DNA of 64,000 nt from Heterodontus francisci. Its lineage: Eukaryota. The translations under genes and the position numbers were made by a program. Within the stretch, counting starts at the first letter, position 1, and every line of letters begins with the position of its first letter. The stretch covers positions 63,179,559 to 63,243,558 of the forward strand of contig NC_090390.1 in assembly GCF_036365525.1 (NCBI RefSeq). The letters run 5' to 3'. Under the pieces are notes generated by a model, which was given only the letters and a program-made list of their open reading frames with translations, did not search any database and was not told the origin of the DNA. Shown piece by piece: positions 1,925 through 60,810 of this stretch.

Positions 1925-2029
1925 ATCACTAGTAAATTTAGACATCTTTGCAATATTCTTGAATTGAGGTGTCTCGCAGTAGTTAATGCTGTAACCTTTA
2001 GCTCTGTCTAGGTCCTTCTTGTACTCTAT
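1925..2029 (-). CDS. NRAP: NRAP nebulin-repeat exon (human exon 12 equivalent)
   Basis: 105 nt, cag|IEYKKDLDRAKGYSINYCETPQFKNIAKMSKFTSD|gtgagt. Confidence 0.95.
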
Positions 2030-2089
2030 CTGAAAAAGTTATAAATAAAATAGTTAAGTAACAGGAATATAAAAAATGATCAGGTCATT

Positions 2090-4340
2090 GGGCAGAATTT
2101 TCCCAGCACAGTGGAGGCGGGTTACGGCGTGTGCTGGGTGCAAAAATCCCTGAAATTGATGTCAGGTCGGGATCCCAACATCATCGCACCATCTTCTGGC
2201 TGTCCCCAGGGTGGGATTGAAGGACAGCATAAACACCCTTGGATCTGTAAGGTGTGTAATTAAGAAGTGGTTGGCATAGTTAGGAAGTCAATTAAGACCT
2301 GCTTTACACAGGAACATACGAAACAGGAGCAGGAGTAGGCCATTCGGCCCCGCTCCACCATTCAACTAGATCATGGCCGATCTACTATCTCAACGTCATT
2401 TTCCTGCACTATCCCCATATCCCTTCATAGCTTTAATATCTAGAAATCTATCAAGTTCTGTCTTGAACATACTCAATGACTAAGCCTCCACAGCCCTTTG
2501 GGGGTAGAGAATTCCAACGATTCACCAACCTGTGAAGAAATTCCTCCTCATCTCAGTCCTAAATGGCTTACCTCTTATTCTGAGCTTGTGTCCCCTGGTT
2601 CTAGCATCCCCCCCCCAAATCAGGAGAAACATACTTCCTGCGTGAACCTTGTCAAGCCCTGTAAGAATTTCTTATGCTTCAATGAGTTCACTTCTTATTC
2701 TTCTAAAGTCTAGAGAATATGGGCCCAGTCTCCTCAATATGTCCTCATAGGACAATCCCGCCATCCCAGGAATTAGTCTGGTGAACCTTCGGTGCACTCC
2801 CTCTATGGCAAATATATCCTTCCTTAGGTAAGGAGACAAAGCTGTACACAATACTCCAGGTGTGGTCTCGCTAAAGCTCTATACAATTGCATCAAGACTT
2901 CTTGACTCCTGTTTTAACACTGAATCCTGAATTTCCCAGCCAGGGGACCTGTTTGCCCACCTGTCAGCAACTCGCCAGGGTCACCAAGGCGAATGCACAG
3001 TGATAGGAGCTTCTTCAGTGAAACTGACAAGCTTCGAAGGCTTTGATCAGTTACACTGAAGAGCTCCAGCCATGGCCATTGAGTGATTAAAGCCCATCTC
3101 CTCTCAGAGAGTGCTTTCAAAGCTTGACAGGTGATTGCCAATTTCTTGGAAGCCACCTCACCTGTCCTACACTTCACACACCTTTAGTTGCACTTACCTG
3201 CTGCCAGCCTTCAACACTGCATGGGAGCAGCTTACACAGGGGCAGAAGCACCAACTGCCTTCTCCTCAGTCGCATGCCCCTCCACAGGGCAGATGGGATG
3301 GGCTCCACAATCCAGCTGGAAGGTGCAGGACCTCCAACACAGGGTCTACAAGCAGATGATCAGTTCCCTCGACATGTCTGAGCTGCAGTGCCTCAGGGGT
3401 TCACAGCAAGTTGCTGCTGACATTTGCAGTCACCCGGAATATGACCTCCTTTCCAGTGGAGCAGGTGGGCATGCATTGTCAATGGCCGTTACAGTGCTCG
3501 TCACTGGAGGGCAACAACACCACCATACCACTTCAACCCCCAGGTCTCTGCCTCTCACTAAGTTCTGTGCTCTCCACCACAAGGAGAGAAAACAGAGAGG
3601 TGTGAGTATTCATAATGGCTTGTGTGGAGGAGGAAAGGGCATCAGTTGCGGAGGGTGACTGTAAGGCATGGGTGCAAGAGTGCAATAGGCTGAGGTTAAG
3701 TGTTAGTGTTGACTGTTCAGATGGGGATGTGAGGTACATGCAGGGACAGGAATAAGTGGAGCTGCAAGGTGTGTTGCCCTGATGAGTGATGTGCGGGAAA
3801 ACGCTGGGCAAGTCAAAGTGTGGGGCTTGGCAGCTGAGAATGTTATGTCATTCCCTGTCTTGCCCTCCTGAGGTGGTGGATCCTCTTGGTGCGCAGTCTC
3901 CAAGTTGGAGGGAACACACTTTTGCTGCTGATTTCCTCGGCCACTTCCATCCACAGGGCGGAGGGGGGAGGGGGGTTGCCTACCCAGGTGATCTCTCCAT
4001 TCCTGTGGTTGCTGCCGCCTGAAAAATCCAAGTCCTGGTGAGCTTTTCTGAAACATGTCGTGGTTCCTTTCATTTATAAATCCTTCCTTTGACAGAATGG
4101 TTGGGGAGCCCGGAGAAGGGATGACCATCAGCTTGCTCTCGTAAAGAGCAACGGCTGGGCACGCAGATCAGTGAGCCAGGTTTCCGACCCAAAAATGGTC
4201 AAGTAGGGACTAACTGCATTATTAATGCAGGCAGATGAGATTAGTTTAGATAGGCATTATGATCGGCATGGACACGGTGGGCCGTAGGGCCTGTTTCTAT
4301 GCTGTACGACTATGACTCTATAATGTGAGAAGATTCTCCC
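2090..4340 (-). mobile_element. Degenerate Harbinger-type DNA element with Myb/SANT remnant, containing nested CR1 3' fragments
   Basis: Ends GGGCAGAATTTT ... AAGATTCTCCC; minus-strand WMEVAEEISSKSVFPPTWRLRTKRIHHLRR; CR1 3' end at about 2310-2912 (-) and tail at 4222-4321 (+). Confidence 0.6.
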
Positions 4341-16050: not shown

Positions 16051-19000
16051 TGGAAGGATTTTCCTTCCAGGGTCGGGAAACAGACGTCGGGACTGTTTCT
16101 GGGTCCCAATCCCGCCCCGGGGGGGGTAGCAGTCACAGGCCCCGATTTTCATGGGGGCATCCAGTTAATTGGCTGGAGGGCAGGTTGGCAGCTAATTAAT
16201 GGCGGAGGGGTCAAAATGAAAGGGGGACTGAAAGCATGCTGGCCCAATTTACTCAGTGAATTGCTGCAGCAGTCATGGAAGAGCAAAGGCAGAGGGATGG
16301 AACTTGGGGCAGGGCTGCCCCTCACTTCACAAACACTGACCTGAGGGTCCTCCTTGAGGCAGTGAGGGAGAGGAGGGAGGTTGTCATTCCAGAGGGTGGC
16401 AGGAGAAAGCCACTCTCCTAAACGAAGCAGGAATGGATTAGGTTTGCTGAGACTGAGAGCAGCCGAAGTGTGGTGTGGAGGGACTGGGTACAGCGCCAGA
16501 AAGGCTCAATGACTTTATTCGCTCTGGCAAGGTGTGTGTAATCCCAGACCCTCATGACGAGCCTCTGGTATTTAACCTCTGGCAGACACACCAGCTGAGG
16601 AGCGTGAGTGCTGCTCTTGAACATGGGAAGAATGTATACCCAGGGTACCTACTCATCCCTCAGCAAGGCTCAGAGCCCGAGCGCACTTGAGGACTTGCCA
16701 GGACTGATACATGCAGCTTGCTATCTCAATGAGCCAATGGCATTGGCCAAAGAGGCCAGCAGTGCCTTAACTCTCTTTCATCCTTGCAGGAGAAAAGAGC
16801 TCATAATGCCCGAGAAAGGGTGCTGAGCAGAGCCCCATCTCCACATCGTGACTGCCATGGAGGAGGGAGCTATGGAAATTGCCAGGGTGGCCACCCCACC
16901 CCTCCTCCCCACCCCACAGCAAGTCGGGAAGGCAAGATGAGGATTCCTGGTGGAGAGGGTGTAAGTATTTTGAAATCAGTAAGTGAAGGGATTGCATTGC
17001 ACTCCACCCCATCCAACAGCATGCCAAAGACTCAGCTGCATTGGGAAGCCGCCGCAATGCTGGGGCTTCTGCTTTTGAGTTACTCACAGGTTCTGACGTC
17101 GAGGGAGAAGGACAGATTCCTGAGTCCACACCAGGGCAACTGCTGGCACAAGAGCGAGCACCATCACATCTTACAAATGCACCCTCCACCAGCTCAGATG
17201 CACAGCCACTTTGGTGGTGCCTTGTGCTCAATTAGAAAGAGTGCCACTGGGTGATGAGCAGTCATGAGTGAGCAGGAGGTGGTGAGAGAGGCAGAGGCAG
17301 CTGTGGACAGTTCCCCTCAGAGGATGCTCAGTTGGGCACAGGTGTCAGTCACAAGAAAGGAGGTTCTACTTAGACCAGCAGCAACAGATGTGTCCTCACA
17401 TGTCAGAGCTCCCTGGAGCAGTACACAGTCATGGGATGAGAATGGAGGCAACTCATGTGCGTGACCCTGGCTCAGGGCTTTGAACGCATGAGCTCCTCCA
17501 TTGAGAAAGTGGCCAACCTCATGGACAGCCATATCCATGGCACTCAAGAATGGATGCAGGGGCAGTGCACTCACATGCACAGAATGCATTCCACACTCTG
17601 TAGCCTTGACTGGTCATTAGTGCTGATGTTGCAGAGATGTTTGGACTGGATGCCAGTTACTCCCCAGCTGGGGCTCCCCTCTAGCCATCTGAGCACCAAC
17701 CAAGGGCTGAGGCAGTCACTGAGCAGGATGAGTGTGCCACCTGTCATGGGGCGTCATCATCAGCACCATCAGCCTCCTTGGCCCCTCTGACTGAGGGACC
17801 ATCTATGCAGCAGGACCCAATGATGAAGGCTGCCCCTGTATTGATGCCGGAGAGCAGCCTCTGGAGCTGCCCCCTAGGCACCTCCACAATGAGGACGACC
17901 GCCACATGCATCTTCAGCTGCAAGCCAAGGCAAGCGAGCAGGCTGCCTCCACCTCATCCAAGTCCTCAATGGGAGCACCAGATAGAAGTGTCCGACAGCA
18001 GACGCCGCCATTTTGGGCAGAGCACTGAGTGGGTCACTGGGGTTTGCCTCACCTGTATATGTACACCACTTTTTCTACACTATGTAAATATCGACACATG
18101 ATGCTAGACGTACGAGCTTCCATTCTTTAATGTCAAGAGAGGAAACAAGGGACAAGATGGTGATGGGAAGCAATGGTCCTTGAAGCGGGGCTATGAAACA
18201 TCTGGACAGATGTGCATCCCCTAATGGCAGTAAGAGTTGATCTATTCCAGTCTATGTCTTCAAATGAAAGCATTGTCACAGGCAGCTCAGACCATGTCGT
18301 CCTCCAGGGTTAGAAGGGCTCAGTTGAAATGCACCTGGATCAGATGATCCCTGGCGTTGATGGTATCCTGAAAAGACCCTCGAGTCCTGCGCAGCCCCAG
18401 CTACCTCCCTGTGCAGCTGGGGCACCTCTGTATTCTGCATCTTCCTCCTCCTCTTCTATGTCCTCCTCCTCCACGTCCTGCTGCTCCTCTTCCTCCAATG
18501 AGCTGTCATTCCAGGGTCTCACCATCAGGGGCATGCAATGGACAGTGCAACAGACCACCACAATGTGCAAGACCCTTGCAGGAGTGTACTGCAGGGCACC
18601 ACCCAACTGGTCCAGACCCCAGAACCATATCTTCAGATGCCCGATGGCCTGCTCGATGGGTCCTTATGAGCAGATGGATTTGAATGTAGCACCTCTGTGG
18701 CTCTGTCTTGGGGTCTTGTAAAGGGGTAGGTAGCCATCTCTTCAAGGGATATCCCTTGTCCCCTAGAATCGATCCACGTAGTTTGGGGGGTGGGGTGGAA
18801 TGAAGAGCTGTGGTAGTCCAGACTGGCGGAGGATGAAGGAGTCACAGCAGCTGCCAGGAAAGTGAACACACACACGTGCAAGCAACTGTTGTTGTGGTAG
18901 TAGAGCAGCTGAATGTTGATAGAGTGGAAGCCCTTCCTGTTGATGAATCTCACTGGCCAGTCACTGGGTGCCTTGATGTCCGCACAGGTGCAGCTCATGA

Positions 19001-20022
19001 TACCCTGCACCCGAGGGAATCCAGTGATGAGGAGAAACCAACCACGAGGCCCTATCTGTCTGAAATTGGATGTACTGTCCAGCTCTCTTGCAAAAGAGGC
19101 ATCAGTGATCTGCGAGATGCAGTGATGTACAGCCATTTGCAAGATTCCACCAAGGTCCACAGCTGATCCTTGTAAGGAGCCAGTGGTGAAGACGCTCAAG
19201 GCCACAGTGACCTTGATGGCTACTGACAGGGAATGGTGGACAGTGCTACGAGACGTGATGTTTTCCTCCATGAGGGCACAAATCTCTGTGACCATCTGCC
19301 TGCAGAGTCGCAGTCTGCTGCAGCACTGGTCCTCTGATATCTCAAGGTAGCTTCATCTTTGGCGGTAGATCCTGTTCTGAAGGTATGGCCTCCATTGCCT
19401 TTATGCCCCTTGTCCCTCTCCACCACCCTCCTCATATCCAGGGCTCTGCCTTTCTTTCAGAGCATGTTGCTCCTCATTGCCACTGGACCCAAAATCCGAG
19501 ATTCAAGCTCCCTTTGCCAGCTGTTGCCGTCCTTGTATTCAGCTGGACTCCCAATAATATCTGGAATCCTTACCCCCTTCTTTTATGTCCCGCAATGCCA
19601 GGAGGGCGACGACCCCCTGCACTGCCTGACGCGTAGTGACCACTCTGCCAACAACCTGTGCACACCCAATGGTACCTGTGTGCCAATGGCTGAGTGCCCT
19701 GCTCGGCCATTCTCCCTTTTATGAGTCCACCTAATTTCAGGGGAGGCCATAACTATCTTCCATTGTTACTGCCTCCATGCCTGGTCTGCCCCTGATGCAG
19801 TGTGCAGCCCAGGCCCCTCACTAAAATCCCTCTCAATGAGCTCCTTAGCTAGCTTAATTAGCCTTATGGCTGAATCAGGCAAGTTTGCGAGACCATCCTT
19901 CCCCCATCCTAATGAAACTCACCGGCGATGGAAACAGCGACAGGAAACCGTTTTGCCGGCACCACTATTTTCAAATGTCCACCTCCGTTCCCTGCCCCTG
20001 GCAGGACCTAAAAATACATCCC
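16051..20022. mobile_element. Near full-length degenerate Harbinger (PIF) transposon: Myb/SANT gene (+) convergent with HARBI1-like transposase (-)
   Basis: Plus strand about 16300-16530 FTNTDLRVLLEAVRERREVV...WVQRQKRLNDFIRSGK|gt; minus strand about 18330-19300 GFPRVQGI, FINRKGFHSINIQL, GDKGYPL, GGALQYTP; degenerate TIRs, TTT flanks. Confidence 0.85.
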
Positions 20023-20324: not shown

Positions 20325-20963
20325 TAACTGGACCAGCCACATAAATGCTGTGGCTACAAGAGCAGATCAGAGGCTGGCGACCCTGTGGACAGTGACTCAT
20401 CTGCTTATCCTGTAAACCTTTCTACCATCAACAAAACACAAGTCAGGAGTGTTGGAATGCTCTCCCTTTGCCTGGATGGGTGCAGCTCCCAAACTCAAGA
20501 AGCTCAACACTATCCAGGACAAAGCAGCCCGCTTGATTGGCACCTCTTTCACCATATTAAACACTCACTTTCTCCACCATCACCACACTACAGCAGCAGT
20601 GTGCACCATCTACAAGATGCATAGCAACAACTCGCTAAGTCTTCTTCGATAGCACCTCCCAAACCCGTCACCTCTTCCACCTAAAAGAACAAGGGCAGCA
20701 GACACATGGGTACACCACCATGTGCAAGTTCCCCTCCAAGTCACACACCATCCTGACTTGGAACTATATCACACTTCCTTCATTGTAGCTGTGTCAAAAT
20801 CCTGCTACTCTCTCCATAACAGCACTATGAGAGTACCTTTACCACACAAACTGCAGCGGTCCAAGAAGGTGGCTCAACACCACCTTTTCACAGACAATTA
20901 GTGATGGGCAATAAATGTGGTCCTTGCCAACGGTGCCCACAACCTATGAATGATTAAAAAAAT
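20325..20963 (+). mobile_element. 3' fragment of the tRNA-headed LINE family (older copy)
   Basis: KLNTIQDKAARLIG, AAVCTIYKMH; ATGAATGA-poly(A) tail. Confidence 0.85.
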
Positions 20964-20987: not shown

Positions 20988-22375
20988 GGGGAGGCGGTGG
21001 CGTAGTGGTATTGTCACTGGACTAGTAACCCAGAGACCCAGGGTATTGCTCTGGGAACATGGGTTCAAATCTCACCACAGCAGAAGGTGGAATTTGAATT
21101 CAATTAATAATTCTGGAATTAAAAAGCTAGTCTAATGATGGGCATGAAACCATTGTCGATTGTTGTAAAAACCCATTTGGTTCACTAATGTCCTTCAGGG
21201 AAGGAAATCTGCTTTCCTTACCTGGTCTGGCCTACATGTGACTCCAAACCCACAGCAATGTGGCTGACTCTTACATGCCCTCCTAAATGGCCTAGCAAGC
21301 CACTCAGTTGTATCTAACCGCTACAAAGTCAATAAAAAGGAATGAAACCAGACGCACCACCCGGCATCGACCTAGGCACCGGAAACGACAACGGCAAACC
21401 CAGCCCTGTCGACCCTGCAAAGTCCTCCATACTAACATCTGGGGGCTTGTGCCAAAGTTGGGAGAGCTGTCCCACAGACTAGTCAAGCAACAGCCTGACA
21501 TAGTCATACTCACGGAATCATACCTGACAATGTCCCAGATACTGCCATCACCATCCCCGGGTATGTCCTGACCCACAGGCAGGACAGACCCAGCAGGGGT
21601 GGCAGCACAGCGGTATACAGTAGGGAGGGAGTTGCCCTGGGAGTCCTCAACATTGACTCTGGACCCCATGGAGTCTCATGGCATCAGGTCAAACATGGAC
21701 AAGGAAACCTCCTGCTGATTACCACCCTCCCTCAGCTGATGAGTCAGTACTCCTCCATGTTGAACAGCACTTGAAGGAAGCACTGAGGGTGGCAAGGGCA
21801 CAGAATGTACTCTGGGTGGGGGACATCAATGTCCATCGCCAAGGGTGGCTCAGTAGCACCACTACTGACCGAGCACTAAAGAACATATCTGCTAGACTGG
21901 GTATGAGGCAGGTGGTGAGGGAACCAACAAGAGGGGAAAACATACTTGACCTCGTCCTGACCAATCTGCCTGCCGCAGATGCATCTGTCCATAACAGTAT
22001 TGGCAGGAGTGACCACCACACAGTCGTTGTGGAGACGAAGTCCAGCCTTCACATTGAGGATACCCTCCTTCGTGTTGTGTGGCACTACCACCATGCCAAA
22101 TGGGACAGATTTCAAACAGATATAGCAATGCAAAACTGGGCATCTATGAGGCGCTGTAGGCCATCTGCAGCAGCAGAATTGTACTCAACCACAATCTGTA
22201 ACCTCATGGCCTGGCATATCCCCCTTCCTAACAGCACTGTGGGTATACTTACCCCAAATGGACTGCAGCGGTTCAAGAAGGCAGCTCACCACCACCTTAT
22301 CAAGGGCAGTTAGGGATGGGCAATAAATGCTGGCCTAGCCAGCGACGCCCACATCCCATGAATGAATAAAAAAAA
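20988..22375 (+). mobile_element. tRNA-headed LINE, internally deleted (Pol III head, endonuclease, 3' end)
   Basis: A box TGGCGTAGTGG 20998-21008, B box GGTTCAAATC from 21062; endonuclease motifs TNIWGL, PDIVILTES, GDINVH, LDLVLTN, SDH; jump to 3' end near 22222; poly(A). Confidence 0.9.
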
Positions 22376-28124: not shown

Positions 28125-29432
28125 CTATAATTTGTATTTATTAAGGACTTGGATGATGGGATGGAAAGCCACATATCCAAATTTGCCAATGACACAAAAA
28201 TAGGTAGCATTGTAAGCAGTGTAAAATGACAAAGAGATACTGATAGGATAAATGAATAGGGAAAACTGTGGCAAATGAATTTTAGTGTTTGCAAATGTGA
28301 GGTCATCCACTTTGGACCTAAAAAGGATAGAACGGGGTATTTTCTAAATGAAGAAAAAAAAAGACTTGCATTTATATAACGCTTTTCACGACCACCGGAT
28401 GTCTCAAAATGCTTCACAGCCAATAAAGTACTTTTGAAGTGTAGTCACTGTCGTAATGTAGGAAACGTGGCAGCCAATTTGCACACAGCAAACTCCCACA
28501 AACAGCAATGTGTTAAGGACTAGATATTCTGTTTTTGTGATGTTGATTGAAGGATAAATATTGGCTAGGACACTTGGGATAACTCCCCTGCTCTTCTTTG
28601 AAATAGTGCCATGGGATCTTTTACATCCACCCAAGCAGGAAGATGAGTCCTCTGTTTAACACCTATCTGAAAGATGGTTCCTCCAACGGTGCAGTCCCTC
28701 CTCAGTACTGCACTGGAGCACTAGAGTGTTAGCTTGTGCTGGTGAAAAGCTAGAAATAGTGGCAGTCCAAAGACATTTAGGGGTCCATCATTTAAATGTC
28801 ATGATAGCTACAGATAATAATCAAAAACACTGGCCTTTATATCTAGAGGACTAGAATACCAGGGAATAGAAGTCATGTTTCAACTATACAAAGCTCAGGT
28901 TAGACCACAGCTGGAGTACTATGAGCAGTTCCGGGCACTACACCCTAGAAAGGATATATTGGCCTTGGAAGGAGTGCAATGTAGATTTACCAGAATGATA
29001 CCTGGATTGCAAGAGTTAAATTACGAGGATAGATTACACAAACTATTCCCTGGAATTTAGAAGGTTAAGAGGTGATTTGATCAAAGTTTTCAAGATATTA
29101 AGGGGAACAGATAGGGTGGATAGACAAAAACTATTTCCACTGGTTGGGGAGTATATGACTAGGGGGCATAGTCAAAAAATTAAAGCCAGATCATTAGGAA
29201 ATTAGAAGTCACTTCAACATGCAAATGGTGGTAGAAAGCTCTTCCACAAATGGCAATTGACACTAATGTTAATTTTAAAACTGAGGTTGATAGATTTTTG
29301 TTAACCAAAGGTATTATGGGAAATGGGGCAAAGGTGGATATATGGAGTTAACTCACAGATCAGCCATGGTCTCATTGAATGATGGAACTGGCTCAAGGGG
29401 CTAAATGATCTCTTCCTATTTCTGCGTTCCTA
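28125..29432 (+). mobile_element. CR1 3' fragment split by a Deu-SINE
   Basis: SKFANDTKIG, VRPQLEY motifs; interrupted at about 28351-28740. Confidence 0.8.
28351..28735 (-). mobile_element. Deu-SINE (SacSINE1-like)
   Basis: Deu domain GTAAAAGATCCCATGGCACTATTTC...GTGTCCTAGCCAATATTTATCC; L2-like 3' tail. Confidence 0.8.
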
Positions 29433-34540: not shown

Positions 34541-34571
34541 TGACAGTCTCCAAGACAAAACTGTCTGCTTG

Positions 34572-35860
34572 ATTTTTTAAAATTCATTCATGGGATGTGA
34601 GCATTGCTGGCAGGGCCAGCATTTATTGCCCATCCCTAATTGTCAGTGAGAAGATGATAGTGAGCTGCCTTCTGGAATGACTGCAGTCCATATGGTGTAT
34701 GTATACCCACAGTGCTGTTAGGGAGGGAGTTCCAGGATTTTGACCCAGCAACATTAAAGCAATGGTGATATATTTCCAAGTCAGGGTAGTTTGTGGCTTG
34801 GAGGGGAACTTGCAACTGATGATGTTCCCATGCGTCTGCTGCCCTTCTTCTTCTATGTAGTAGAGGTCACGGGTTTGGAAGGTGCTGTCAAAGGACCCTT
34901 GGTGAGTTGCTGCAGTGCATCATGTAGATGGTACACAGATGGTGCCAGTGGTGAAGAGAATGAATGTGGTAGATGAGGTGTCAATCAAGTGGGCTGCTTT
35001 TTTCTGGATGGTGTCCAGTTTCCTGAGTATTGTTTGAGCTGCACTCATCCTGACTTGTGCCTTGTGATGGTAAACAAGCTTTGGGGAGTCAGGAGGTGAG
35101 TTACTTGCTGCAAATTCCCAGTGTCTGACCTGCTCTTGTAGCCACATTATTTATATGGCTGGTCCAGTAAAGTTTCTGGTCAATGATAACCCTCAGGATG
35201 TTGATGGTGGGGGATTCAGTGATGGTAATGCCGATGAACGTCAAGGAGAGATGGAAGGTTAGATTCTTTCTTGTTGGAGAAGGTCATTGCCTGGCACTTG
35301 TGTATCGCGAATGTTACTTCCCAGTTATCAGCCCAAGCCTGAATGTAGTCCAGGTTGCTGCACGCGGGCACAGACTGTTTCACTATCTGAGGAGTTGCAA
35401 CTGGTACTGAACACTATCCAATCTTCAGTGAACATCCCCACTTCTGACCATATGATGGAGAGAAGGTCATTGATGTAACAGCTGAAAATTGGCAACTCAT
35501 CCACTTGCCTAAACATTTACTCACTCCACCACCAGTATATCGTGGCTGCAGTATGTACTATCGACAAGACGCACTGCAGCAACTCACCAAGGCTTCTTCA
35601 GCAGCACCTCCCAACCCTTTAACCTCCGTCGCCTAGAAAAACAAGATCTGTATGGAAACACCATCACCTCTAAATATCCCTCCAAGTCACACACCATCCT
35701 CACTTGGATATGTATCATTGTCCCAACAACATTGTTAGGTCATTATCCTATTTAACAGCATTGTGTGAGTATCTACACCAAGACACTTAGGAAGAAGGCC
35801 AATCACCACCTTTTCAGGGTAATAAATACCAGCCTTGGCATCGTGCTGAGAATGATTTTT
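34572..35860. mobile_element. Two decayed 3' fragments of the tRNA-headed LINE family in opposite orientation
   Basis: 34572-35485 (-) and about 35490-35860 (+) both match 43575-44520. Confidence 0.75.
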
Positions 35861-35944: not shown

Positions 35945-36390
35945 AGCTCCAGCTCACTTGGCAGTATCTCACCTCGGAGTAAGAAAGTTGTGGATTCAAG
36001 TCCAGGGAGTCGAGCACAAACATTTAGGCTGACATTCTAGTGCAATAGTGAGGGAGTGCTGCGATGTTGGAGGTGTTGCCTTTTGGATGAGATGTTAAAC
36101 CAAAGCCTCATCTCCTCTCTCATATGGATGTAAAAGATCCCATGGCACTATTTCGTAGAACAGCAAGGCAGTTACCCCTGGTATCCTGTCAATATTTCTC
36201 CCTCAATCAACATCACTAAAGATGCAGATTATCTGTCCATTATTACTTGCTGTTTGTAGGGGTTTGCTGTGCATATACTGGCTGCTGTGTTTCCCACTTT
36301 ACAACAGTGACTACAATTCAAAAGTACTTCATTGGCTGTAAAGTGCTTTTGGATATCCTGAGTTCATGAAAGGTGTTATGTAAATGCAAG
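35945..36390 (+). mobile_element. Deu-SINE (SacSINE1-like)
   Basis: B-box-like GGATTCAAGTCC; Deu domain GGATGAGATGTTAAACC...AAAGATCCCATGGCAC. Confidence 0.8.
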
Positions 36391-36392
36391 TA

Positions 36393-38103: not shown

Positions 38104-39793
38104 TTTTTTCTTTATCTTTCTTGCATTGAAGTTCCATCCCGCTTTCAACAAATATTAAGCCAAACATTTTGAGGTCTTCATGCGCGGCAATGGCAACAAA
38201 AGATGGATTTTGCTAAGTAATCCTCATCAGTGAGCATCCAAAGACACCTATGAACATTTCTCTCACTTTGGTCAGTTGAAGCTTTTTGCTCACTCAGGTA
38301 AAAGCCTAGCCTGGATATCTAATCCAGTGTTCCACTCAAATTTCACTTGGGTACAATTTTTATAATGAAATCTGTCTGTCCAATGCAGACAGGGGTTGCA
38401 AGACTGCAATTTTCTCAAAACTTCCTGTTGCTTGCAAGCTTGTATTTTTGCCCAGTTAACAGGCCAGTTTAATGAGCAAGTATATTACCTGCCTCACATA
38501 TTCAAAGTTCCCCCTATAGCAGAGGCATTGGCTCATTTGATTTTACAGTAGAAACATAATAATCACCTTGACCTAATTAGCATCTACACAGAGTGGGCTC
38601 ATCTCATGTTAGCCATCTGGGTTATGGGGGATTTGGGCTTTTTTTTGCCTCAATCAGAAGCGTCTGAGAGGTGGTATGTATAACATAGTAAATAGTAAGC
38701 AAAAGGTACATGTGACAGTTTGCAAGAGTAGGTCAAGGAGAACAGATTCAAACCAGTAAAAGGCAAATTCAGGACTGATAACAGGATATTTTTCACATAA
38801 TGAATAATAATAAATGCAACGAATTCCCAGGTAATGTAGTACAGCCAAAACCCTGAAATCATTTAAGAACCAATTGGATACTGCAGTGGATGGATGAACT
38901 GTAAGACTGGCCTTCTTCAACTGTAAATACCTTGTGATGCTACCAGCTACAGTGGTGTTAAAGAAAGTTGCATTTGGAAGCTTCACATCCATACTTCCTG
39001 TACAGAACAAGCATGGGCATGATGTGACTTAGTTAAATTAAGAATGAATAAACCATATCTTGAAATTCTTCTTGAGATCAAGTCTAACTTGTGTCTATAT
39101 GGGGCCGTTGTGGGAGATTAATTTAGATAATTAATTATGTTTTTAAAGTTCTGTTCTCCACCATCTGCAAGTTCCGCTCACATCATGCACCACGCTGACT
39201 TGGAAATATATTGCCGTTCCTTCTCTGTCGCTGGGCCAAAGCCCTGGAACTCCCTCTCTAACAGCACTGTGGGACTACCTTTAACACATGGATTGCAGCG
39301 GTTCAAGACAGTGACTGAGCACCAGGGATGGGTGAAGCAACTCAAGTTCTGTATGGAAGGAATCTGATCTCTATTGCACTTTCTGAAATGTCAAATTTGA
39401 ACTGTTTTGTAATGTATTTTTTATGAATAAAATATATTCATGGGCAATGCCCAGATCCCATGAACGAAAGCCCGCCCCCCCCCCAAAAAAAGCCTTCATT
39501 TGCTAGGACGACCGTCAACTAATTATTTCAAAATTAATTACCAGTTAAGAATTTAAATAGGAGAAAACTAGCCATTGGCGAAAATTTATGTTGTCATTAT
39601 TTGTCGACCTGGTTTTACCCAATAGTATCGATCACAGCTGTGTGTGTGTGTGTGTATATATATCTATTTAGAAAGCTGCTCTGTAAACGGATATAGAGGC
39701 GGTGCTAGAGTTTAGTTGAGTGCATAGACTGTGCGTGTGGGGGTTATTCCGTGTTATACTTTGTGTGCAACTGGTCTCTCGTGATAAAGCAAC

Positions 39794-41138: not shown

Positions 41139-41508
41139 CTTTTGTTTGTGGGATGTGAGCATTGCTGGCTAGGCCAGCATTTATTGCCCATCCCTAATTG
41201 TCCTTGAACTGTGGCTCGCTAGGCCATTTCAGAGGGCAGTTAACAGTCAACCACATTGTTGGTCTGGAGTCACATGTAGGCCAGACCACATAAGGATGAC
41301 CGATTTCCTTCCCTAAAGGACATTAGTGAACCAGATGGGTTTTTACAACAATCAACAATGGTTTCATGGTCACCGTTAGACTAGCTTTTTTATTCTAGGT
41401 TTATTAATTGAATTCAAACTTCATATACCATGGCGGGATTCAAACACTTGTCCCCAGAGCTTTAGCCTGGGCTCTGGATTACTCGTCCAGTGACATTACA
41501 CCACTGCA
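41139..41508 (-). mobile_element. SINE made of the 5' ~300 nt and 3' ~70 nt of the tRNA-headed LINE
   Basis: Head and body match 20998-21309; tail matches 22300-22375. Confidence 0.88.
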
Positions 41509-43495
41509 AGTGTACTACAGCCCTCCAAACAGTCAGGGAGAGATAGAGGAGCAGATATGTAGGCAAATCTCAGATGTAAAAGTAATAGGGTGGTAATAGG
41601 GGATTTCAACTTCCCCAATACTAACTGGGATAGTCTTTGTGCAAAAGGCTTTAAGGGGGCGGAATTCGTAAAATGCATACAGGAGAGCTTTTTGAACCAG
41701 CATGTAGAAAATCCTACCAGAGAAAGGGAAGTACTGGACCTAATCCCAGGGAATGAAGCCGGACAAGTTGTAGAAGTGTTGGTGGGGGAGCTTTTGGGGA
41801 TTGTGACCATAACTAAGATTTAAGGTAATGATGGAAAAGAACAAAGATGGACAGGAAATAAAAGTACTGAATTGGAGGAAGGCTGATTTCAATATGATAA
41901 AACAGGCCAAAAGGGACTGGGAGCAGCTACTTGTAGGAAAGTCTACATCAGACCAGTGGGAGTCATTCAAAAAAGAAATAGAGTTCAGGGCCAACATGTT
42001 TGCGTAAAGGTGAAGGGTAGGACCAGCACTCCAGGGAATTCGATGTCAAGGGATATAGAGGATTGGATAAGGGAAAAAAGGCTTATGGCAGATTGAGTGC
42101 TGAAAACAGCAGAGGCCCTAGAGGAGTATAGAAAGTGTAGGGGAGTATTTAAAAAAAAAAGTACTTAGAGCTAAGAGGGGCCATGAAAAAACACTGGCAG
42201 ACAAGATAAAGAAAAATCCCAAGGCATTTTATAAGTATATTAAGGGCAAGAGGATAACCAGGGAAAGAGCAGGGCCTATTAAGGACCAAAGTGGCAATCT
42301 GTGTGGAGCTGGAGGACAGGTGAGATTTCAAATGATTACTTTACATCTGTGTTCACTTTGGAGAAGGATGATGTAGAGATCAGGAAGGGGGATTGTGATA
42401 TACTTGAACAAATTAGCATTGAAGTGGAGGTAGGGGGGGAAAGAAGTATTAGCTATTTTAGTGGGCTTAAAAATGGATAAATCCCCAGGCCTAGATGAGC
42501 TGTATCCCAGGCTGTTGAGGCAAGGGAGGAGATAAGGGCTTTGACATGAATTTTCAAATCCTCTCTGGTCACAGGAAAGGCACCAGAGGACTGGAGGACA
42601 GTGAATGTTGTACCATTAATCAAGAAGGGTAGCAGGGAGAAACCAGGTAATTACAGGCCAGTGAGTCTGACATCAGCGGTAGGATAAGCAGAGCTGTGGC
42701 AAATGGAATTTAATCCTAGGAAGTGTGAGGTGATGCATTTTGGGAGGACTAACAAGGCAAGGGAATATGAAATGGATGGTAGGACCCTAGGAAGTACAGG
42801 GGGTCAGAGGGACCTTGGTGCCCTTGTCCATAAATCACTGAAGGCAGCAGCACAGGTAGATAAGGTGGTTAGAAGCATATGGGATACTTGCCTTTATTAG
42901 CCGAGACAGAATATGAGCAGGGAGGTTATGATGGAGCTGTATAAAATGCCAGTTAGGCAACAGCTGGAGTACTGTGTACAGTTCTGGTCACCACACTATA
43001 GGAAGGATGTGATTGCACTGGAGAGGGTGCAGAGGAGATTCACTGCCTGAGCTGGAGCATTTCAGCTATGGAGAGAGACTGGATAGGCTAGGGTTGTTTC
43101 TCTTTGAGCAGAGAAGGCTGAGGGGGGGGGACCTGATTGAGGGATACAAAGTTGAGGGGCATTGATAGGATAGATAGGAAGGAACTCTTTCCCTTAGTGG
43201 ATGGGTCAATAACCAAGGTGCATAGTTTTAAGATGAGGGATAGGAGGTTTAGAGGGGATTTGAGGAAATTTTTCAACTAGAGGGTGGTTAGAATCTGGAA
43301 CACACTGCCTGAAGTGGTAATAGACGCAGGAACCCTCACAACATTGAAATATTCAGATGAGGGCTTGAAACGCTATAGCGCAAAGGCTACAGGCCAAGTG
43401 CTGGAAAATGGGATTGGAATAGTTTAAGTGCTTGATGTCCGGCACAGACATGATAGGCCAAAGGGCCTGCTTCTGTGCTGTATAACTGACTCACT
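41509..43495 (+). mobile_element. CR1 LINE (same family as 11860-14825) with the RT core deleted
   Basis: Colinear with the 11860 copy but jumps from YRPVSLTS to WQMEFN near 42685. Confidence 0.9.
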
Positions 43496-43571
43496 CTACT
43501 TTCTATGGAGGAATTCTATGCCTTCTCTAGCTGGAGTATTTATATTGCAAGTTTGCTTTGGCAGTAAAGGA

Positions 43572-46265
43572 GTTTTTTTTATTCATTCACGGGATGTGGA
43601 CGTCACTGGCCAGGCCAGCATTTGTTGCCCATCCCTAATTGCCCTTGAGAAGGTGGTGGTGAGCTGCCTTCTTGAACCGCTGCAGTCCATGTGGGGTAGG
43701 TACACCCACAGTGCTGTTAGGAAGGGAGTTCCAGGATTTTGACCCAGTGACAGTGAAGGAACGCGATATAGTTCCAAGTCAGGATGGTGTGTGACTTGGA
43801 GGGGGACTTGCAGGTGGTGGTGTTCCCATGTATTTGCTGCCCTTGTCCTTCTAGTTGGTAGAAGTCGCGGGTTTGGAAGGTGCTGTCGAAGGAGCCTTGG
43901 TGCATTGCTGCAGTGCATCTTGTAGATGGTACACACTGCTGCCACTGTGCGTCGGTGGTGGAGGGAGTGAATGTTTGTAGATGGGATGCCAATCAAGCGG
44001 GCTGCTTTGTCCTGGATGGTGTCGAGCTTCTTGAGTGTTGTTGGAGCTGCACCTATCCAGGCAAGTGGAGAGTATTCCATCACACTCCTGACTTATGCCT
44101 TGTAGATTGTGGACAGGCTTTGGGGAGTCAGGAGGTGAGTTACTCACCTCAGGATTCCTAGCCTCTGACCTGCTCTTGTAGCCACGGTATTTATATGGCT
44201 ACTCCAGTTCAGTTTTCGGTCAATGGTAGCCCCTAGGATGTTGATAGTGGGGGATTCAGCGATGGTAATGCCGTTGAATGTCAAGGGGAGATGGTTAGAT
44301 TCTCTCTTGTTGGAGATGGTCATTGCCTGGCACTTGTGTGGTGCGAATGTTACTTGCCACTTATCAGCCCAAGCCTGGATATTGTCCAGGTCTTGCTGCA
44401 TTTCTACACGGACTGCTTCAGTATCTGAGGAGTCACGAATGGTGCTGAACATTGTGCAATCATCAGCGAACATCCCCACTTCTGACCTTATGATTGAAGG
44501 AAGGTCTTTTATGAAGCAGCTGAAGATGGTTGCGCCTAGGACTCTACCCTGAGGTACTCCTGCAGTGATGTCCTGGAGCTCAGATGATTGACCTACCACA
44601 ACCATCTTCCTTTGCGCTAGGTATGACTCCAGCCAGTGGAGGGTTTTCCTCCTGATTCTCATTAACCTCAGTTTTGCTAGGGCTCCTTGATGTCATACTC
44701 GGTCAAATGCTGCCTTGATGTCAAAGGCAGTCACTCTCACCTCACCTCTTGAGTTCAGTTCTTTTGTCCATGTTTGACCAAGGCTGTAACGAGGTCAGGA
44801 GCTGAGTGGCCCTGGTGGAACCCAAACTGAGCATCACTGAGCAGGTTGTTGCTAAGCAAATGTCGCTTGATGGCACTGTTGATGACACCTTCCATCACTT
44901 TACTGATGATTGAGAGTAGGCTAATGGGGCGGTAGTTCGCCGGGTTGGATTTGTCCTGCTTTTTGTGTACAGGACATACCTGGGCAATTTTCCACATTGC
45001 AGGGTAGATGCCAGTGTTGTAGCTGTACTGGAACAGCTTGGCTAGGGGCGCGGCAAGTTCTGGAGCACAGGTCTTCAGTACTATTGCTGGAATGTTGTCA
45101 GGCCCCATAGCTTTTGCAGTATCCAGTGCCTTCAGTCGTTTCTTGATATCACGTGGAGTGAATCGAATTGGCTGAAGTTTGGTATCTGTGATGCTGGGGA
45201 CTTCAGGAGGAGGCCGAGATGGATCATCAACTCGGCACTTCTGGCTGAAGATTGTTGCAAATGCTTCAGCCTTATCTTTCGCACTGATGTGCTGGGCTCC
45301 CCCATCATTGAGGATGGGGATATTTGTGGAGCCACCTCCTCCAGTTAGTTGTTTAATTGTCCACCGCCATTCACGGCTGGATGTGGCAAGACTGCAGAGC
45401 TTAGATTTGATCCGTTGGTTATGGGATCGCTTAGCTCTGTGTCACATGCTGCTTACGCAGTTTGGCGTGCAAGTAGTCCTGGGTTGTAGCTTCACCAGGT
45501 TGCCACCTCATTTTGAGGTATGCCTGGTGCTGCTCCTGGCATGCCCTCCTCCACTCTTCATTCAACCAGCGTTGGTCTCCTGGCTTGATGGTAATGGTAA
45601 AGTGGGGGATATGCCGGGCCATGAGGTTACAGATTGTGGTTGAGTACAATTCTGATGATGGCCCACAGTGCCTCATGGATGCCCAGTTTTGCATTGCTAG
45701 ATCCATTCGAAATCTATCCCATTCAGCACGGTGATAGTGCCACACAACACGATGGACGGTATCCTCAATGTGAAGGCAGGACTTTGTCTCCACAAGGTCA
45801 CTCCTACCAATACTGTCATGGACAGATGCATCTGCGGCAGACAGATTGGTGAGGACAAGGTAGAGTATGTTGTTCCCTCGTGTTGGTTCCCCCACCACCT
45901 GCCGCAGACCCAGTCTAGCAGCCATGTCCTTTAGGACTCGGCCAGCTTGGTCAGTAGTGGTGCTACCGAGCCACTCATGGTGATGGACATTGAAGTCCCC
46001 CACCCAGAGTACATTTTGTGCCCTTGCAGTGCTTCCTCCAAGTGCTGTTCAACATGGAGGAGTACTGAGTCATCAGCTGAGGTAATCAGTAGGAGGTTAC
46101 CTTGCCCATATTTGATCTGATGCCATGAGACTTCATGAGGTCCGGAGTCGATGTTGAGGACTCCCAGGGCAACTCTCTCCCTACTGTATACCCCTGTGCC
46201 ACCACCTCTGCTGGGTCTGTCCTGTCGGTGGGACAGGACGTACCCGGGGATGGTGATGGCGGTGT
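43572..46265 (-). mobile_element. Long 5'-truncated copy of the tRNA-headed LINE (CR1 superfamily ORF2, endonuclease plus RT)
   Basis: GDFNVHH, GPDNIP, NYRPISLLS, QFGF, GVPQG, MFADD, MEYSPLAW; poly(A) tail; few frameshifts. Confidence 0.93.
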
Positions 46266-47166
46266 AGTTATTCAGTGTTTACACACACTTCCTGTGAACA
46301 ATGAAAAAACTGGTGTGTAAAAGCAAAAAGGCAAGTCTGAGAATCTTTCAGATATTTTTAACTTTTTATGCGCCTATAATTTTTATTCTTGCTTCCCTGA
46401 TGTGCAAATCTACTGAGTTCATAAGCTTGAGGCCAGTCTTGCATTTTGTAACATGGGCAAGTTTCTTTTTTAAAACAAAAAAAAATCTATTTCATGTTGG
46501 TTTCAGAAAATCACACTTCTGATCTCTCAATTTGCCCAAGAGCAACTAGCGACAGCAATTAGATTCTTTAATTTGACATTGGTAGACATGGCTTTCCTTT
46601 TTTAAAGACTATATTCTTAGCCTGCCATGAACAATATCATGATACATACCTAGTATCAAGATAACACTATGTGAGGAGGAGAAAATGAAGCAGTGAGATG
46701 TGTATTATTTATGTTGAATACATAGACTCTTGATCTGCTTAATTTAGCCAAACTGCCAGATTTTACATAACTAAAATAAGGGATCCAGGAGGAGAAAACT
46801 TTTCCTGTAACTTAATCCAGTGGCATAATTCAGAGGAGGATTTTTGGATTCCTGGCGAGCATTTATTCAAAAATCACCAAAGTTAGTCATTTACCTCATT
46901 ACTGTTTGTAGGAGTTTCCTGCACATATGTTAGCAGCTGTCTGATTACATTGCAATTATTACATTTTGCTGGGAATTTTTTGGGGCGCCTGAAAATGTGA
47001 AAGGCAGTGCCTTATTGTGAAAAACAGTAACCCACTTTTTGCTCTTAGACTTGACTTGCAATATTAGTAAACTCACTGAATTGAATAATGGGATCTTTCA
47101 TATCTATGAATTGCATTAATCTAATTAACTAAACAGATTAACACAGATTACTCTTTGCTGTTGCAG

Positions 47167-49097
47167 GTGCTGACACGGACAAGGCCCCCGAGGGGGAGGG
47201 AGCCGCCAGGGACAAGGCCCCCGAGGGGGAGGGAGCCGCCAGGGATAAGGCCCCCGAGGGGGAGGGAGCCGCCAGGGATAAGGCCCCCGAGGGGGAGGGA
47301 GCCGCCAGGGATAAGGCCCCCGAGGGGGAGGGAGCCGCCAGGGATAAGGCCCCCGAGGGGGAGGGAGCCGCCAGGGATAAGGCCCCCGAGGGGGAGGGAG
47401 CCGCCAGGGATAAGGCCCCCGAGGGGGAGGGAGCCGCCAGGGATAAGGCCCCCGAGGGGGAGGGAGCCGCCAGGGATAAGGCCCCCGAGGGGGAGGGAGC
47501 CGCCAGGGATAAGGCCCCCGAGGGGGAGGGAGCCGCCAGGGATAAGGCCCCCGAGGGGGAGGGAGCCGCCAGGGATAAGGCCCCCGAGGGGGAGGGAGCC
47601 GCCAGGGCTAAGGCCCCCGAGGGGGAGGGAGCCGCCAGGGCTAAGGCCCCCGAGGGGGAGGGAGCCGCCAGGGCTAAGGCCCCCGAGGGGGAGGGAGCCG
47701 CCAGGGCTAAGGCCCCCGAGGGGGAGGGAGCCGCCAGGGCTAAGGCCCCCGAGGGGGAGGGAGCCGCCAGGGCTAAGGCCCCCGAGGGGGAGGGAGCCGC
47801 CAGGGCTAAGGCCCCCGAGGGGGAGGGAGCCGCCAGGGCTAAGGCCCCCGAGGGGGAGGGAGCCGCCAGGGCTAAGGCCCCCGAGGGGGAGGGAGCCGCC
47901 AGGGCTAAGGCCCCCGAGGGGGAGGGAGCCGCCAGGGCTAAGGCCCCCGAGGGGGAGGGAGCCGCCAGGGCTAAGGCCCCCGAGGGGGAGGGAGCCGCCA
48001 GGGCTAAGGCCCCCGAGGGGGAGGGAGCCGCCAGGGCTAAGGCCCCCGAGGGGGAGGGAGCCGCCAGGGCTAAGGCCCCCGAGGGGGAGGGAGCCGCCAG
48101 GGCTAAGGCCCCCGAGGGGGAGGGAGCCGCCAGGGCTAAGGCCCCCGAGGGGGAGGGAGCCGCCAGGGCTAAGGCCCCCGAGGGGGAGGGAGCCGCCAGG
48201 GCTAAGGCCCCCGAGGGGGAGGGAGCCGCCAGGGCTAAGGCCCCCGAGGGGGAGGGAGCCGCCAGGGCTAAGGCCCCCGAGGGGGAGGGAGCCGCCAGGG
48301 CTAAGGCCCCCGAGGGGGAGGGAGCCGCCAGGGCTAAGGCCCCCGAGGGGGAGGGAGCCGCCAGGGCTAAGGCCCCCGAGGGGGAGGGAGCCGCCAGGGC
48401 TAAGGCCCCCGAGGGGGAGGGAGCCGCCAGGGCTAAGGCCCCCGAGGGGGAGGGAGCCGCCAGGGCTAAGGCCCCCGAGGGGGAGGGAGCCGCCAGGGCT
48501 AAGGCCCCCGAGGGGGAGGGAGCCGCCAGGGCTAAGGCCCCCGAGGGGGAGGGAGCCGCCAGGGCTAAGGCCCCCGAGGGGGAGGGAGCCGCCAGGGCTA
48601 AGGCCCCCGAGGGGGAGGGAGCCGCCAGGGCTAAGGCCCCCGAGGGGGAGGGAGCCGCCAGGGCTAAGGCCCCCGAGGGGGAGGGAGCCGCCAGGGCTAA
48701 GGCCCCCGAGGGGGAGGGAGCCGCCAGGGCTAAGGCCCCCGAGGGGGAGGGAGCCGCCAGGGCTAAGGCCCCCGAGGGGGAGGGAGCCGCCAGGGCTAAG
48801 GCCCCCGAGGGGGAGGGAGCCGCCAGGGCTAAGGCCCCCGAGGGGGAGGGAGCCGCCAGGGCTAAGGCCCCCGAGGGGGAGGGAGCCGCCAGGGCTAAGG
48901 CCCCCGAGGGGGAGGGAGCCGCCAGGGCTAAGGCCCCCGAGGGGGAGGGTGCCGACACGGAAAAGGCCCCCAAGGGGGAAGGTGCCGCCACGGATAATGC
49001 TGTCGAGGGAGAGGGTGCAGGCAATTTCATAATTTATCTTATAAGTGGATCACTGTTTGTCGCCGTCGTATATATCCTATACCACAACAAAAATAAG
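47167..49097 (+). CDS. TGN38/TGOLN2-KCT2 family gene, exon 2 (repeat lumenal domain and TM helix)
   Basis: ctctttgctgttgcag| phase 1; (G)ADTD-(KAPEGEGAARD/A)53-...EGEGAGNFIIYLISGSLFVAVVYILYHNKNK|gtaagc; TM plus HNKxK matches family motif VAVLYIAHHNKRK. Confidence 0.9.
47181..48995 (+). repeat. 33-bp coding minisatellite, 53 near-identical units plus 2 degenerate units
   Basis: Unit AAGGCCCCCGAGGGGGAGGGAGCCGCCAGG(GAC/GAT/GCT); unit 1 ends GAC, units 2-12 GAT, units 13-53 GCT. Confidence 0.97.
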
Positions 49098-58351: not shown

Positions 58352-58638
58352 TTTTTTTCTATGTCAGAGGATGTGGGTGTCGCTGGCCCATCTCTAATTG
58401 CCCTTGAAAACTGATTGACATATTAGGCCATTTTAAAGGGCAGTTAAGAGTCAACCACATTGCTGTGGGTCTGGAGTCACGTGTAGACCAGGTAAGGACG
58501 GCAGATTTCCTTCCCTAAGGGACATTGAACCAGATGGGTTTTTATGACAATCGATAGTTTTATGACACCAATACTGAGACTAATTTACAATTCTGAATTG
58601 TTAATAATTAATTGAATTTAAATTCCACCAGCTGCCGT
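58352..58638 (-). mobile_element. Second, truncated copy of the LINE-derived SINE
   Basis: Matches 41139-41430. Confidence 0.75.
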
Positions 58639-58639
58639 G

Positions 58640-60810
58640 TAAGAGTAAATCAATAGATAAGGCTAGAGGTTACAAAAATAATAAAAGGACAAAAATAATT
58701 AAAGGGCAAAATTAAAGGCTCCGTATCTGAATGCAGGTAGCATTCAAAACAAAACAGATGAACTGAGAGCACAAGTAGAAATAAATAAGTACGAGCTGAT
58801 AGCCATTACAGTGACATGGCTGCAGGATGACATAGATTGGGACCTGAATATTGAAGAGTATATGGCATTTAGGAAGGACAGGAAGCTAGGAAAAGATGGA
58901 GGGGTAGCTCTGTTAATTAATGATGGTATTAGTGCAACAGAGATGGATGACCTAAGTTCAGGAGACCAGGATGTAGAAGCAGTTTAGGTAGAGATGAGAA
59001 ATCATAAAGGCAAGACGCCACTTGTGGGAGTGGTGTACAGGCCGCCTAACATTAACCACGCTGTAGGATGGGGTATAAAAGGAAGAAATAATGGCAGTTT
59101 GTCAGAAAGATACAGCGATAATTATGGGGGATTTTAACCTACATATAGACTGGAAAACTCAGATGGGCAGAAGTAGCCTAGATGAGGAGTACAAAGAATG
59201 TTTTCGGGATAATTTCTTGGAACAATACATTCTGGAGCCAACTAGAGAGCAGGCTAAAATAGACCTGGTATTGTACAACTAATAGGATTAATTAATGACC
59301 TCATAATTAAGGTGCCCCTAGGTAGCAGCAATCATAATATGATTGAATTGTACATTCAGTTTGAGGGAGATAAGAGTGGGTCCAAGACTAGTATTTTAAT
59401 CTTAAATAAGGGTAATTAAGAGGGCAGAAAGCAGAGCTAGCTAAAGTGAACTCGCAAATTAGGTTAAGGGATAGGTCAATAGAGATGCAGTGGCAGACAT
59501 TGAAGGGGATATTTCAGAATACACAGAATAGATACATTTCAACACGAAAGAAAAATTTCAAGGGTGGGACCCGCCATCCGTGGTTAACTAAAACAGTTAA
59601 ATATAGTATCAAACTTAAAGAAAAAGCCTATAATTGCGCAAAGATGGGAGGAAGGTCAGAAGATTGAACAGAATATAAAAAACAGCAAAGAATGACTAAA
59701 AGATTGATAAGGAAGGTAAAATTAGAGTACTAGAGAAAGCTAGCTAGAAATATAAAGATAGATAGCATGGGTTTCTATAGATACTTAAAAAAGAAAAGAG
59801 TTACCAAAATGAGTGTTGTCCTATAGAAAGTGAGTCTGAGGAATTAATAATGTATAATAAGGAGATGGCAGATGAATGGAACAAATATTTTGCATCATTC
59901 CTCACTATTGAGGATACAATTAACATCCCAGTATTAGCTGTAAGTCATGAAATGCAAGGGATGGAGGAACCCAAGAAAATTACAATCATCAGGGAAGTGG
60001 TACTGAACAAATTGTTGGAGCTGTGGGCTGACAAGTCTCTGGGTCCTGATGGACTTCATCCTATGTGTTAAAAGATGTGGCTAGTGAGATAGTTAGTTTG
60101 AATTTTCCAAAATTCCCTAGATTCGGGGAAGATTCAGTTAGATTGGAAAATAGCAAATAAAGCTCCTTTATTCAAAAAGGGAGGGAGACAGAAAGCAGGA
60201 AACTACAAGCCAGTTAGCTTAACATCTATCTTGGAGGAAATGTTAGAAGCTATTATTAAAGATGGTACAGCACGGCATTTAGAAAAATTCAAGGTAATCA
60301 GGCGGAGTCAACATGGTTTTGTGAAAGGGAAATCATGTTTAACCAATTTATTGGAGTTCTTTGAGGGAGTTACATATACTGTGGATAATGGGGAACCGGT
60401 GGATGTATTGTACTTAGATTTCGAGAAGGCGTTTGATAAGGTGCCACATCAAAGGTTATTGTAGAAAATAAAAGATCATGGTGTAGGGGGTAACATATTG
60501 GCATGGATAGAAGATTGGCTAGCTAACGGGAAACAGAGTAGGCTTAAATGGGTCATTTTAGGACAGAGATGAGGAGAAATTTTTTCTCTGAGGGTTATGC
60601 AACTTTGGAACTCTCAGCCTCAGAAGGTGGTGGAGGTGGAGTCATTGAATATTCTTAAGGTGGAAGTAGATAGACTCTTGTTAGGCAAGGGTTATCGGGG
60701 GTACATGGGAGTGTGGAATTCGAAACACAAACAGATCAGTCATGATCTTATTGAATGGCGGAGGAGGCTCGAGGGGCTGAATGGCCTACTTCTACTCCTA
60801 ATTCATATGA
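58640..60810 (+). mobile_element. CR1 LINE (second family), endonuclease plus N-terminal RT, internally deleted
   Basis: YLNAGSIQNK, MGDFNLHIDW, GPDGLHP, QHGFVKGKSCLTNL, DFEKAFDKV; jump to 3' end near 60558. Confidence 0.88.

Follow-up and report, generated by a model that had tools for sequence, protein, structure and literature searches.

Loss of T-runs from the sense strand of a shark and ray Zenon-type LINE with a tRNA-like head

A truncated LINE copy and its relatives in the window

Within the 64,000-nt stretch of Heterodontus francisci DNA analysed here (the window), a 5′-truncated copy of a Zenon-type LINE occupies positions 43573-46263 on the minus strand and corresponds to approximately nt 555-3297 of a 3.3-kb family majority sequence. 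Remains of an AP-type endonuclease domain (45431-46263, minus strand; tblastn, with Pfam PF14529 on 45431-46048) and of a reverse transcriptase (RT) domain (44144-45441, minus strand; tblastn, with PF00078 on 44144-44692) are followed by the end of the ORF, the 3′ UTR and an A8 tail (43573-43650, minus strand), a segment common to the LINE and a related SINE. The reading frame is interrupted by stops and frameshifts, and the copy contains none of the weak terminator motifs described below. The preliminary description of this region had called the coding part ORF2, a label we drop because the element has one ORF only.

That description also drew attention to the scarcity of T-runs on the element's sense strand, and its counts hold. 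The plus strand lacks AAAA from 43405 to 46304, the longest AAAA-free gap in the window. In 43572-46265, the sense (minus) strand has no run of four or more T (T4+) and seven TTT, read as seven AAA on the plus strand, together with 13 A4+ runs (13 TTTT on the plus strand, comprising 12 internal runs and the 8-nt tail). As claimed, sense T4+ is also zero in the LINE copy at 20988-22375 and the SINE at 41139-41508, and a CR1 element at 11860-14825 has 13 such runs. Among 1227 sliding windows of 2694 nt, four are without AAAA and none is without TTTT. For this single copy, however, zero TTTT is a modest signal: base shuffles expect 3.5 such runs (P=0.023) and dinucleotide shuffles 1.2 (P=0.28). 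What exceeds chance is the deficit of TTT and interrupted T-runs across the family majority.

The copy at 20988-22375 (plus strand) retains the 5′ end of the element and carries an internal deletion: it contains the head and the start of the ORF, then jumps at approximately 22222 to the 3′ end. Its tRNA-like head (20988-21080, plus strand; A box 20998-21008, B box 21062-21072) is followed by a SINE-type body serving as 5′ UTR (21081-21309, plus strand) with 82% identity to the SINE at 41211-41499. This body is presumably the V domain. The SINE itself (41139-41508, minus strand) consists of the first ~321 nt of the LINE joined to its last ~75 nt, i.e. the LINE minus its ORF. Further relatives are older LINE 3′ fragments at 20326-20962 (plus strand, 80% identity, one T4), 34571-35489 (minus strand, 80% identity, two T4) and 35488-35820 (plus strand, inverted, one T4), a short LINE 3′ fragment at 39158-39324 (plus strand) and an older partial SINE copy at 58386-58639 (minus strand, one T4).

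Between 41139 and 46263, the SINE, CR1 fragments (41509-43498) and the LINE copy nearly abut, as nested or adjacent insertions. The window also holds a GC-rich 33-bp minisatellite of ~56 near-identical copies, open in several frames (47125-49050), and a GC-rich stretch at 16700-19360 that served as a T-run control. The translation of 18633-19352 (minus strand) presumably resembles a Harbinger-type transposase.

The full-length family

The LINE family is present in high copy number, with thousands of first-look candidates in the 6-Gb genome. When copies were found by the endonuclease region alone, 15 of 29 extended upstream into the ~550-nt 5′ end represented in the window by 20988-21540. We retrieved 59 loci, of which 23 passed a full-length filter; two of these share flanks, so that the family majority was built from 22 independent copies. 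It is 3297 nt long and comprises the tRNA-like head, the body to nt 321, the ORF, a short 3′ UTR containing AATAAA and an A tail. The ORF is a single frame of 975 codons (308-3232). A natural frame of 907 aa contains PF14529 (AP endonuclease) and PF00078 (RT), and there is no ORF1.

The head is fused to the ORF at a fixed junction. Among 66 copies reaching the 5′ region, the 5′ end lies at nt 1 in 28 and within nt 1-3 in 36; the remaining ends are scattered, with no common alternative 5′ end among the 66 save that of three duplicated loci. Contigs from at least six of eight sequencing runs, drawn from six studies and covering five organisms and a metagenome, span the head-ORF junction (an RNA origin is presumed for seven of the eight runs). 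Target-site duplications were not consistent among family copies, and a search for relatives in viral contigs returned none.

In an RT tree built without any named Zenon reference, the family falls among invertebrate RTs, lepidopteran ones included (support 0.89), and is distant from the CR1 outgroup. Such elements are named elasmobranch Zenon in PMC13343379, where they are described, as here, as ~3.3 kb long with a single APE+RT ORF, no ORF1 and a poly(A) tail. Judged by eye over their first 400 letters, the published consensuses are near-identical to our family majority, head included: all seven elasmobranch Zenon consensuses, which come from five species (CarCar, HypSab, RhiTyp, ScyCan, SquAca), begin with the same head and show no TTTT there, and two hagfish and one coelacanth Zenons, compared in the same way, lack the head and contain TTTT. 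We therefore describe the family as a Zenon-type LINE of sharks and rays, 3.3 kb long and with one ORF. The main text of PMC13343379 uses neither 'tRNA' nor 'Pol III', and its passages on elasmobranch Zenon do not mention the head, the loss of terminators or the AUG-less frame.

A tRNA-like head is common to the LINE and its SINE

The A box (nt 11-21) and B box (nt 75-85) are kept among copies, and the element starts ~10 nt upstream of the A box. Both this start and the spacing of the boxes fit a type-2 Pol III unit, in which the boxes lie ~55-65 nt apart. In four of eight full-length loci, ARAGORN placed a tRNA at the head, and an Rfam match to tRNA-Sec (19.7 bits, E=0.31) stayed under the cut-off. 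Of 80 related metagenome loci, many of them without a 5′ end, 60 gave no ARAGORN tRNA. The fold of nt 1-352 is not unusually stable (z -0.9).

The relation between the two elements may reflect either an origin of the SINE by deletion of the LINE or capture of a SINE front by the LINE. The head meets the ORF at a fixed point, with no SINE tail in between, which led us to reject a third arrangement, a SINE inserted before a LINE. Nor is the LINE itself a SINE, since it is 3.3 kb long and its ORF is under purifying selection (see below).

Elasmobranchs are known to carry HE1 and HER1, a tRNA-headed SINE whose 3′ tail is common to a CR1-group LINE. The LINE and SINE described here presumably correspond to HER1 and HE1. 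Compared with that pair, the LINE here also carries the entire 5′ part of the SINE as its 5′ UTR. The HE1 V-SINE and HER1 LINE of sharks and rays appear as a pair in a table of PMC3747384. A comparable derivation is described for Persaeus (PMC6740152), a likewise non-autonomous element in which the 5′ and 3′ ends of a lepidopteran Zenon are joined; as described there, that element shows neither tRNA homology nor a Pol III promoter, whereas the shared 5′ end here is tRNA-like.

Like tRNA-derived SINEs, the LINE has internal A and B boxes, a start ~10 nt before the A box and no internal T4. In the T+ group of these SINEs (B2, Dip, Ves), a T-run is described as growing in the short A tail after AATAAA (PMC8466645). 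Unlike them, the LINE is ~10 times longer, encodes a selected protein and mostly ends without a T4: across 107 distinct tails, the median is A8 after a single T, with T4+ before the A tail in 20 and no T4 in 87. In 41 of the 107, a T-run of 2-8 stands in place of the first A's of the tail, to a total length of ~10-12 (e.g. L042, L051, L061, L205, L220). These tail T-runs are probably mutations that arose after insertion; they could supply a terminator but are not independent evidence.

TTT and interrupted T-runs are depleted in the family majority

We then asked how far the scarcity of T-runs exceeds what composition predicts. The majority of the 22 copies contains 81 TT, seven TTT and no T4+, alongside 15 A4+, 13 C4+ and 8 G4+ runs. 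The absence of T4+ thus extends from the single copy to the family, so that the first refuting condition set by the preliminary description, T4+ runs in the consensus, does not apply. For its second, a depletion no greater than composition predicts, the outcome is less clear: synonymous-codon shuffles expect 2.05 such runs (P=0.086, not significant) and dinucleotide shuffles 1.63 (P=0.17), within the expectation from composition. A bias in phenylalanine codons was not significant either, with TTT:TTC at 4:14 against 62:103 in the other two-fold C/T-ending families (p=0.30).

Shorter and interrupted runs behave differently from T4+. The ORF has four T3+ runs, against 12.7±2.5 expected (0 of 5000 synonymous shuffles), and its runs of at least three A, C or G are as expected. 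Because the ORF contains four TTT runs and four TTT phenylalanine codons, none of these runs arises solely across codon borders. At synonymous third positions, T:C is 4:35 (4 of 39) where T would create TTT and 158:178 (158 of 336) where T stands alone. Windows with four T in five nucleotides number one by a neutral count, against 6.6 expected (P=0.003).

In human Pol III assays, T3VT, TVT3 and T2VT2 are reported as weak terminators, and T3 and T2GT2 as nearly inactive (PMC3141230). The only two windows of the majority with four T in five read TTGTT, the nearly inactive variant in that report. No weak terminator motif is present in the majority, compared with 6.05 expected under the synonymous null (P=0.0006) and 6.6 under the dinucleotide null (P=0.0003), for a motif set that we picked post hoc, once the TTGTT windows had been observed. 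The antisense strand has 34. Selection against Pol III terminators, as originally proposed from the T4+ count, is partly supported, by the loss of T3+ and of weak motifs and not by the T4+ and phenylalanine tests. At the level of individual loci, 11 of the 23 full-length copies are without any T4+.

TT is also depleted (ratio 0.67), the loss of T3 is weaker under dinucleotide shuffles (P=0.06), and phenylalanine makes up 1.85% of the protein against 4.0±0.9% in 119 relatives, the second lowest value. Given depleted TT, a marginal T3 loss and scarce phenylalanine, the pressure may be broader than termination.

T-run loss is specific to this family

To place these counts in context, we compared other repeats of the same genome. 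The majority of a CR1 family (30 copies) has T3+, T4+ and weak motifs at 24, 12 and 17, against 26.9, 7.9 and 16.5 expected. A second CR1 family (20 copies; window 58700-60570), whose majority frame of 925 codons opens with Met, has 40, 12 and 30, against 40.5, 12.1 and 25.9. A search of the genome for L2 as a further control gave weak or duplicated matches only. A second abundant SINE-like repeat, which we take to be Deu-type (window 28350-28720 and 36036-36391), has no internal T4 but tolerates ~6 weak motifs in 410 nt.

Among the 80 related metagenome loci, 67 ORFs of at least 450 codons were kept and 13 dropped; for comparison at the DNA level, the closest proteins P0001-P0011 were left out, except P0008. 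The T3 z-scores of the 67 ORFs range from -2.4 to +2.7, and that of the family here is -3.4. Its TTT ratio of 0.18 is the lowest of the 68 ORFs (median 1.17), and each of the 67 has at least 5.1 weak motifs per kb. T-runs are not avoided in the six nearest relatives with DNA (L091, L095, L096, L100, L101, L105); among these, L100, with a similar T content (0.215), has 18 T3+ runs against 17 expected. One distant CR1-group ORF of 912 codons (L157, 54-2789; 5′ end missing) also has no sense T4+, against 5.5 expected, and keeps 14 weak motifs.

Among the sequences compared, the losses affect only T, only the sense strand and only the Zenon-type family. The preliminary description had cautioned that LINE sense strands are generally A-rich, a caveat that leaves all three specificities unexplained. 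For L1, what PMC5381506 describes is A-richness, not T-run loss.

New copies gain T-runs freely

In an older subfamily, whose copies extend into the head, the majority built from 14 copies shows 140 differences across 3180 nt and likewise has no T4+ and no weak motif. Of 211 private C>T changes, 30 create T3+, in keeping with the neutral rate (92 of 849 sites). New copies thus gain T-runs freely, which indicates that there is no mutational barrier and that the deficit arose in the replicating lineage.

A polymorphism test across 130 copies was flat, in that motif-creating variants are not rarer at high frequency (2 of 140 versus 22 of 2393 sites). The high-frequency cases trace to CpG decay, to a linked pair of changes by which the motif is avoided, and to a genuine allele in the head at nt 61, where TATTT ends in 19 of 51 heads and T is the commonest allele. 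Because of this allele, whether the element as a whole counts zero motifs varies with the subfamily; the zero count in the ORF does not. At nt 1387-1388 (e.g. L031, L265), two adjacent synonymous changes move together between subfamilies, and the intermediate reading TATTT is rare, with the motif in two of 51 carriers.

The ORF is selected and may begin without AUG

Variants found in at least five copies have a synonymous:non-synonymous ratio of 202:171, compared with 511:1784 for private variants, and headed copies with frames of 844-926 codons are found. The ORF of the headed lineages is under purifying selection.

The main frame has no Met before codon 285. Between nt 325 and 343, outside CpG guanines, the four commonest variants are synonymous in this frame. 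An in-frame TTG at the SINE/LINE junction (nt 320-322; window 21308-21310, plus strand) is nearly invariant, being intact in 70 of 71 copies, and its spacing to the downstream sequence, judged by eye, is the same in the published consensuses of three of five species and differs in two. We infer that this TTG is a candidate non-AUG start, which would fit an uncapped RNA.

Two other signals at the start of the ORF were considered. An out-of-frame AUG at nt 354 is not favoured as a coding start, as shared variants there are 0:18 synonymous:non-synonymous in its frame and 13:5 in the main frame. A TATA-like word at nt 343-350 was rejected as a Pol II promoter, as it is not conserved in older copies or in other organisms. 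The AUG at nt 354 is itself conserved across species and opens a 46-codon frame over the ORF start (nt 354-494; window 21342-21482). Across species, this interval stands out for its conservation and its CpG content, a pattern that suggests constraint at the RNA level.

A Pol III transcript as the probable explanation

The explanation that we consider probable is that this autonomous LINE is transcribed by Pol III from its tRNA-like head, and that T-runs are kept out of it for read-through. TFIIIC would bind the internal A and B boxes, and Pol III would start at nt 1 and have to read through the whole 3.3 kb. A master copy that gained a terminator would yield a shortened RNA, lacking the 3′ tail on which target-primed reverse transcription depends, and would leave no offspring. 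As small termination losses would sum over such a length, even weak motifs would be purged. Transcription would stop at a T-run of the tail or flank. Translation would be cap-independent and begin at a non-AUG codon near nt 320, and the resulting protein would copy its own RNA. Pol III transcription, for which the preliminary description saw independent support in the lack of TTTT, draws indirect support from the loss of T3+ and weak motifs; the T4+ count and the phenylalanine bias are not significant. Results that speak against it are the TATTT motif in 19 of 51 heads, the flat polymorphism test, the weak motifs tolerated by the presumed Deu-type SINE and the T4-free L157.

In the customary division, LINEs encode protein and are transcribed by Pol II, and SINEs are transcribed by Pol III and are unable to encode protein (PMC5786205; for general context, see PMC5499810). 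A Pol II transcript that avoids U-runs for some other RNA-level reason would conform to this division. Cryptic splice or 3′-end signals, U-rich decay, immune sensing, or pairing of U-runs with the element's own poly(A) are candidate reasons, and the head would be the front of a SINE, captured and put to use in Pol II transcription or in translation. That the depletion reaches down to TT and phenylalanine content, wider than terminators need, would suit such a transcript, as would the poly(A) tail of the family, which CR1 is without. We nevertheless judge it unlikely, because T-runs are avoided neither by the CR1 families of the same host nor by the six nearest relatives, older copies do not conserve the TATA-like word, the 5′ ends lie 10 nt upstream of the A box, and the tolerated word TTGTT is a nearly inactive terminator variant. 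It is more doubtful still that there was no selection on T-runs at all, and that a T-poor, C/A-rich, phenylalanine-poor strand low in TT arose by chance beside an unrelated head. Nulls that keep the protein, the codon usage or the dinucleotides expect ~6 weak motifs where none is found, runs of A, C and G are as expected, the TTT ratio is the lowest of 68 ORFs, and L100 combines a similar T content with ordinary T3+. These observations have to be set against the P values of 0.086-0.28 for zero T4+ under codon or dinucleotide nulls, the non-significant phenylalanine bias, the flat polymorphism test and the T4-free L157, all of which chance would accommodate.

Uncapped Pol III RNA is poorly translated, and the ORF offers no AUG until codon 285. 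Both points would be met if Pol III made the RNA that is copied, as for a giant SINE, and the protein came from another RNA, either a capped Pol II read-through of copies lying in genes or the product of a headless partner LINE; the abundance of family sequence in the presumed RNA runs is compatible with this. Purifying selection on the ORF in headed lineages, however, means that the protein must favour its own RNA, and no alternative 5′ UTR appears among the 66 copies. We regard a separate source of protein as improbable, ranking it between the two alternatives above, and return to a Pol III transcript that also serves as the mRNA.

The sequences themselves are already in print as Zenon; what is new, relative to the text of that description, is the combination of a tRNA-like head and a terminator-free ORF in an autonomous LINE, and the case for Pol III transcription is strong but indirect. 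We found neither a tRNA-headed, terminator-free autonomous LINE nor a natural 3-kb Pol III mRNA in the literature searched, the scope of which excluded subscription papers and Repbase reports. In its fullest form, the reading is of a natural 3.3-kb Pol III mRNA: an autonomous LINE of sharks and rays with a tRNA promoter, its whole ORF recoded against termination, translated independently of cap and AUG, with the SINE body (V domain) as a ribosome entry element. We put this forward tentatively, as a possibility that is less likely to be right in all its parts than wrong in some.

Why SINE body domains are conserved is described as an open question (PMC6887750). If this fullest reading is true, it would assign a role to a conserved SINE domain that has long lacked an explanation, and the elasmobranch V-SINE would be an ORF-less derivative of a Zenon-type LINE. 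The element bears on three questions: the length over which Pol III can read, the means by which uncapped RNA is translated, and the reason for the conservation of SINE body domains such as V. A dominant, long-lived family would then break the split between Pol II LINEs and Pol III SINEs, and Pol III would be able to make a functional multi-kilobase mRNA in a vertebrate germ line.
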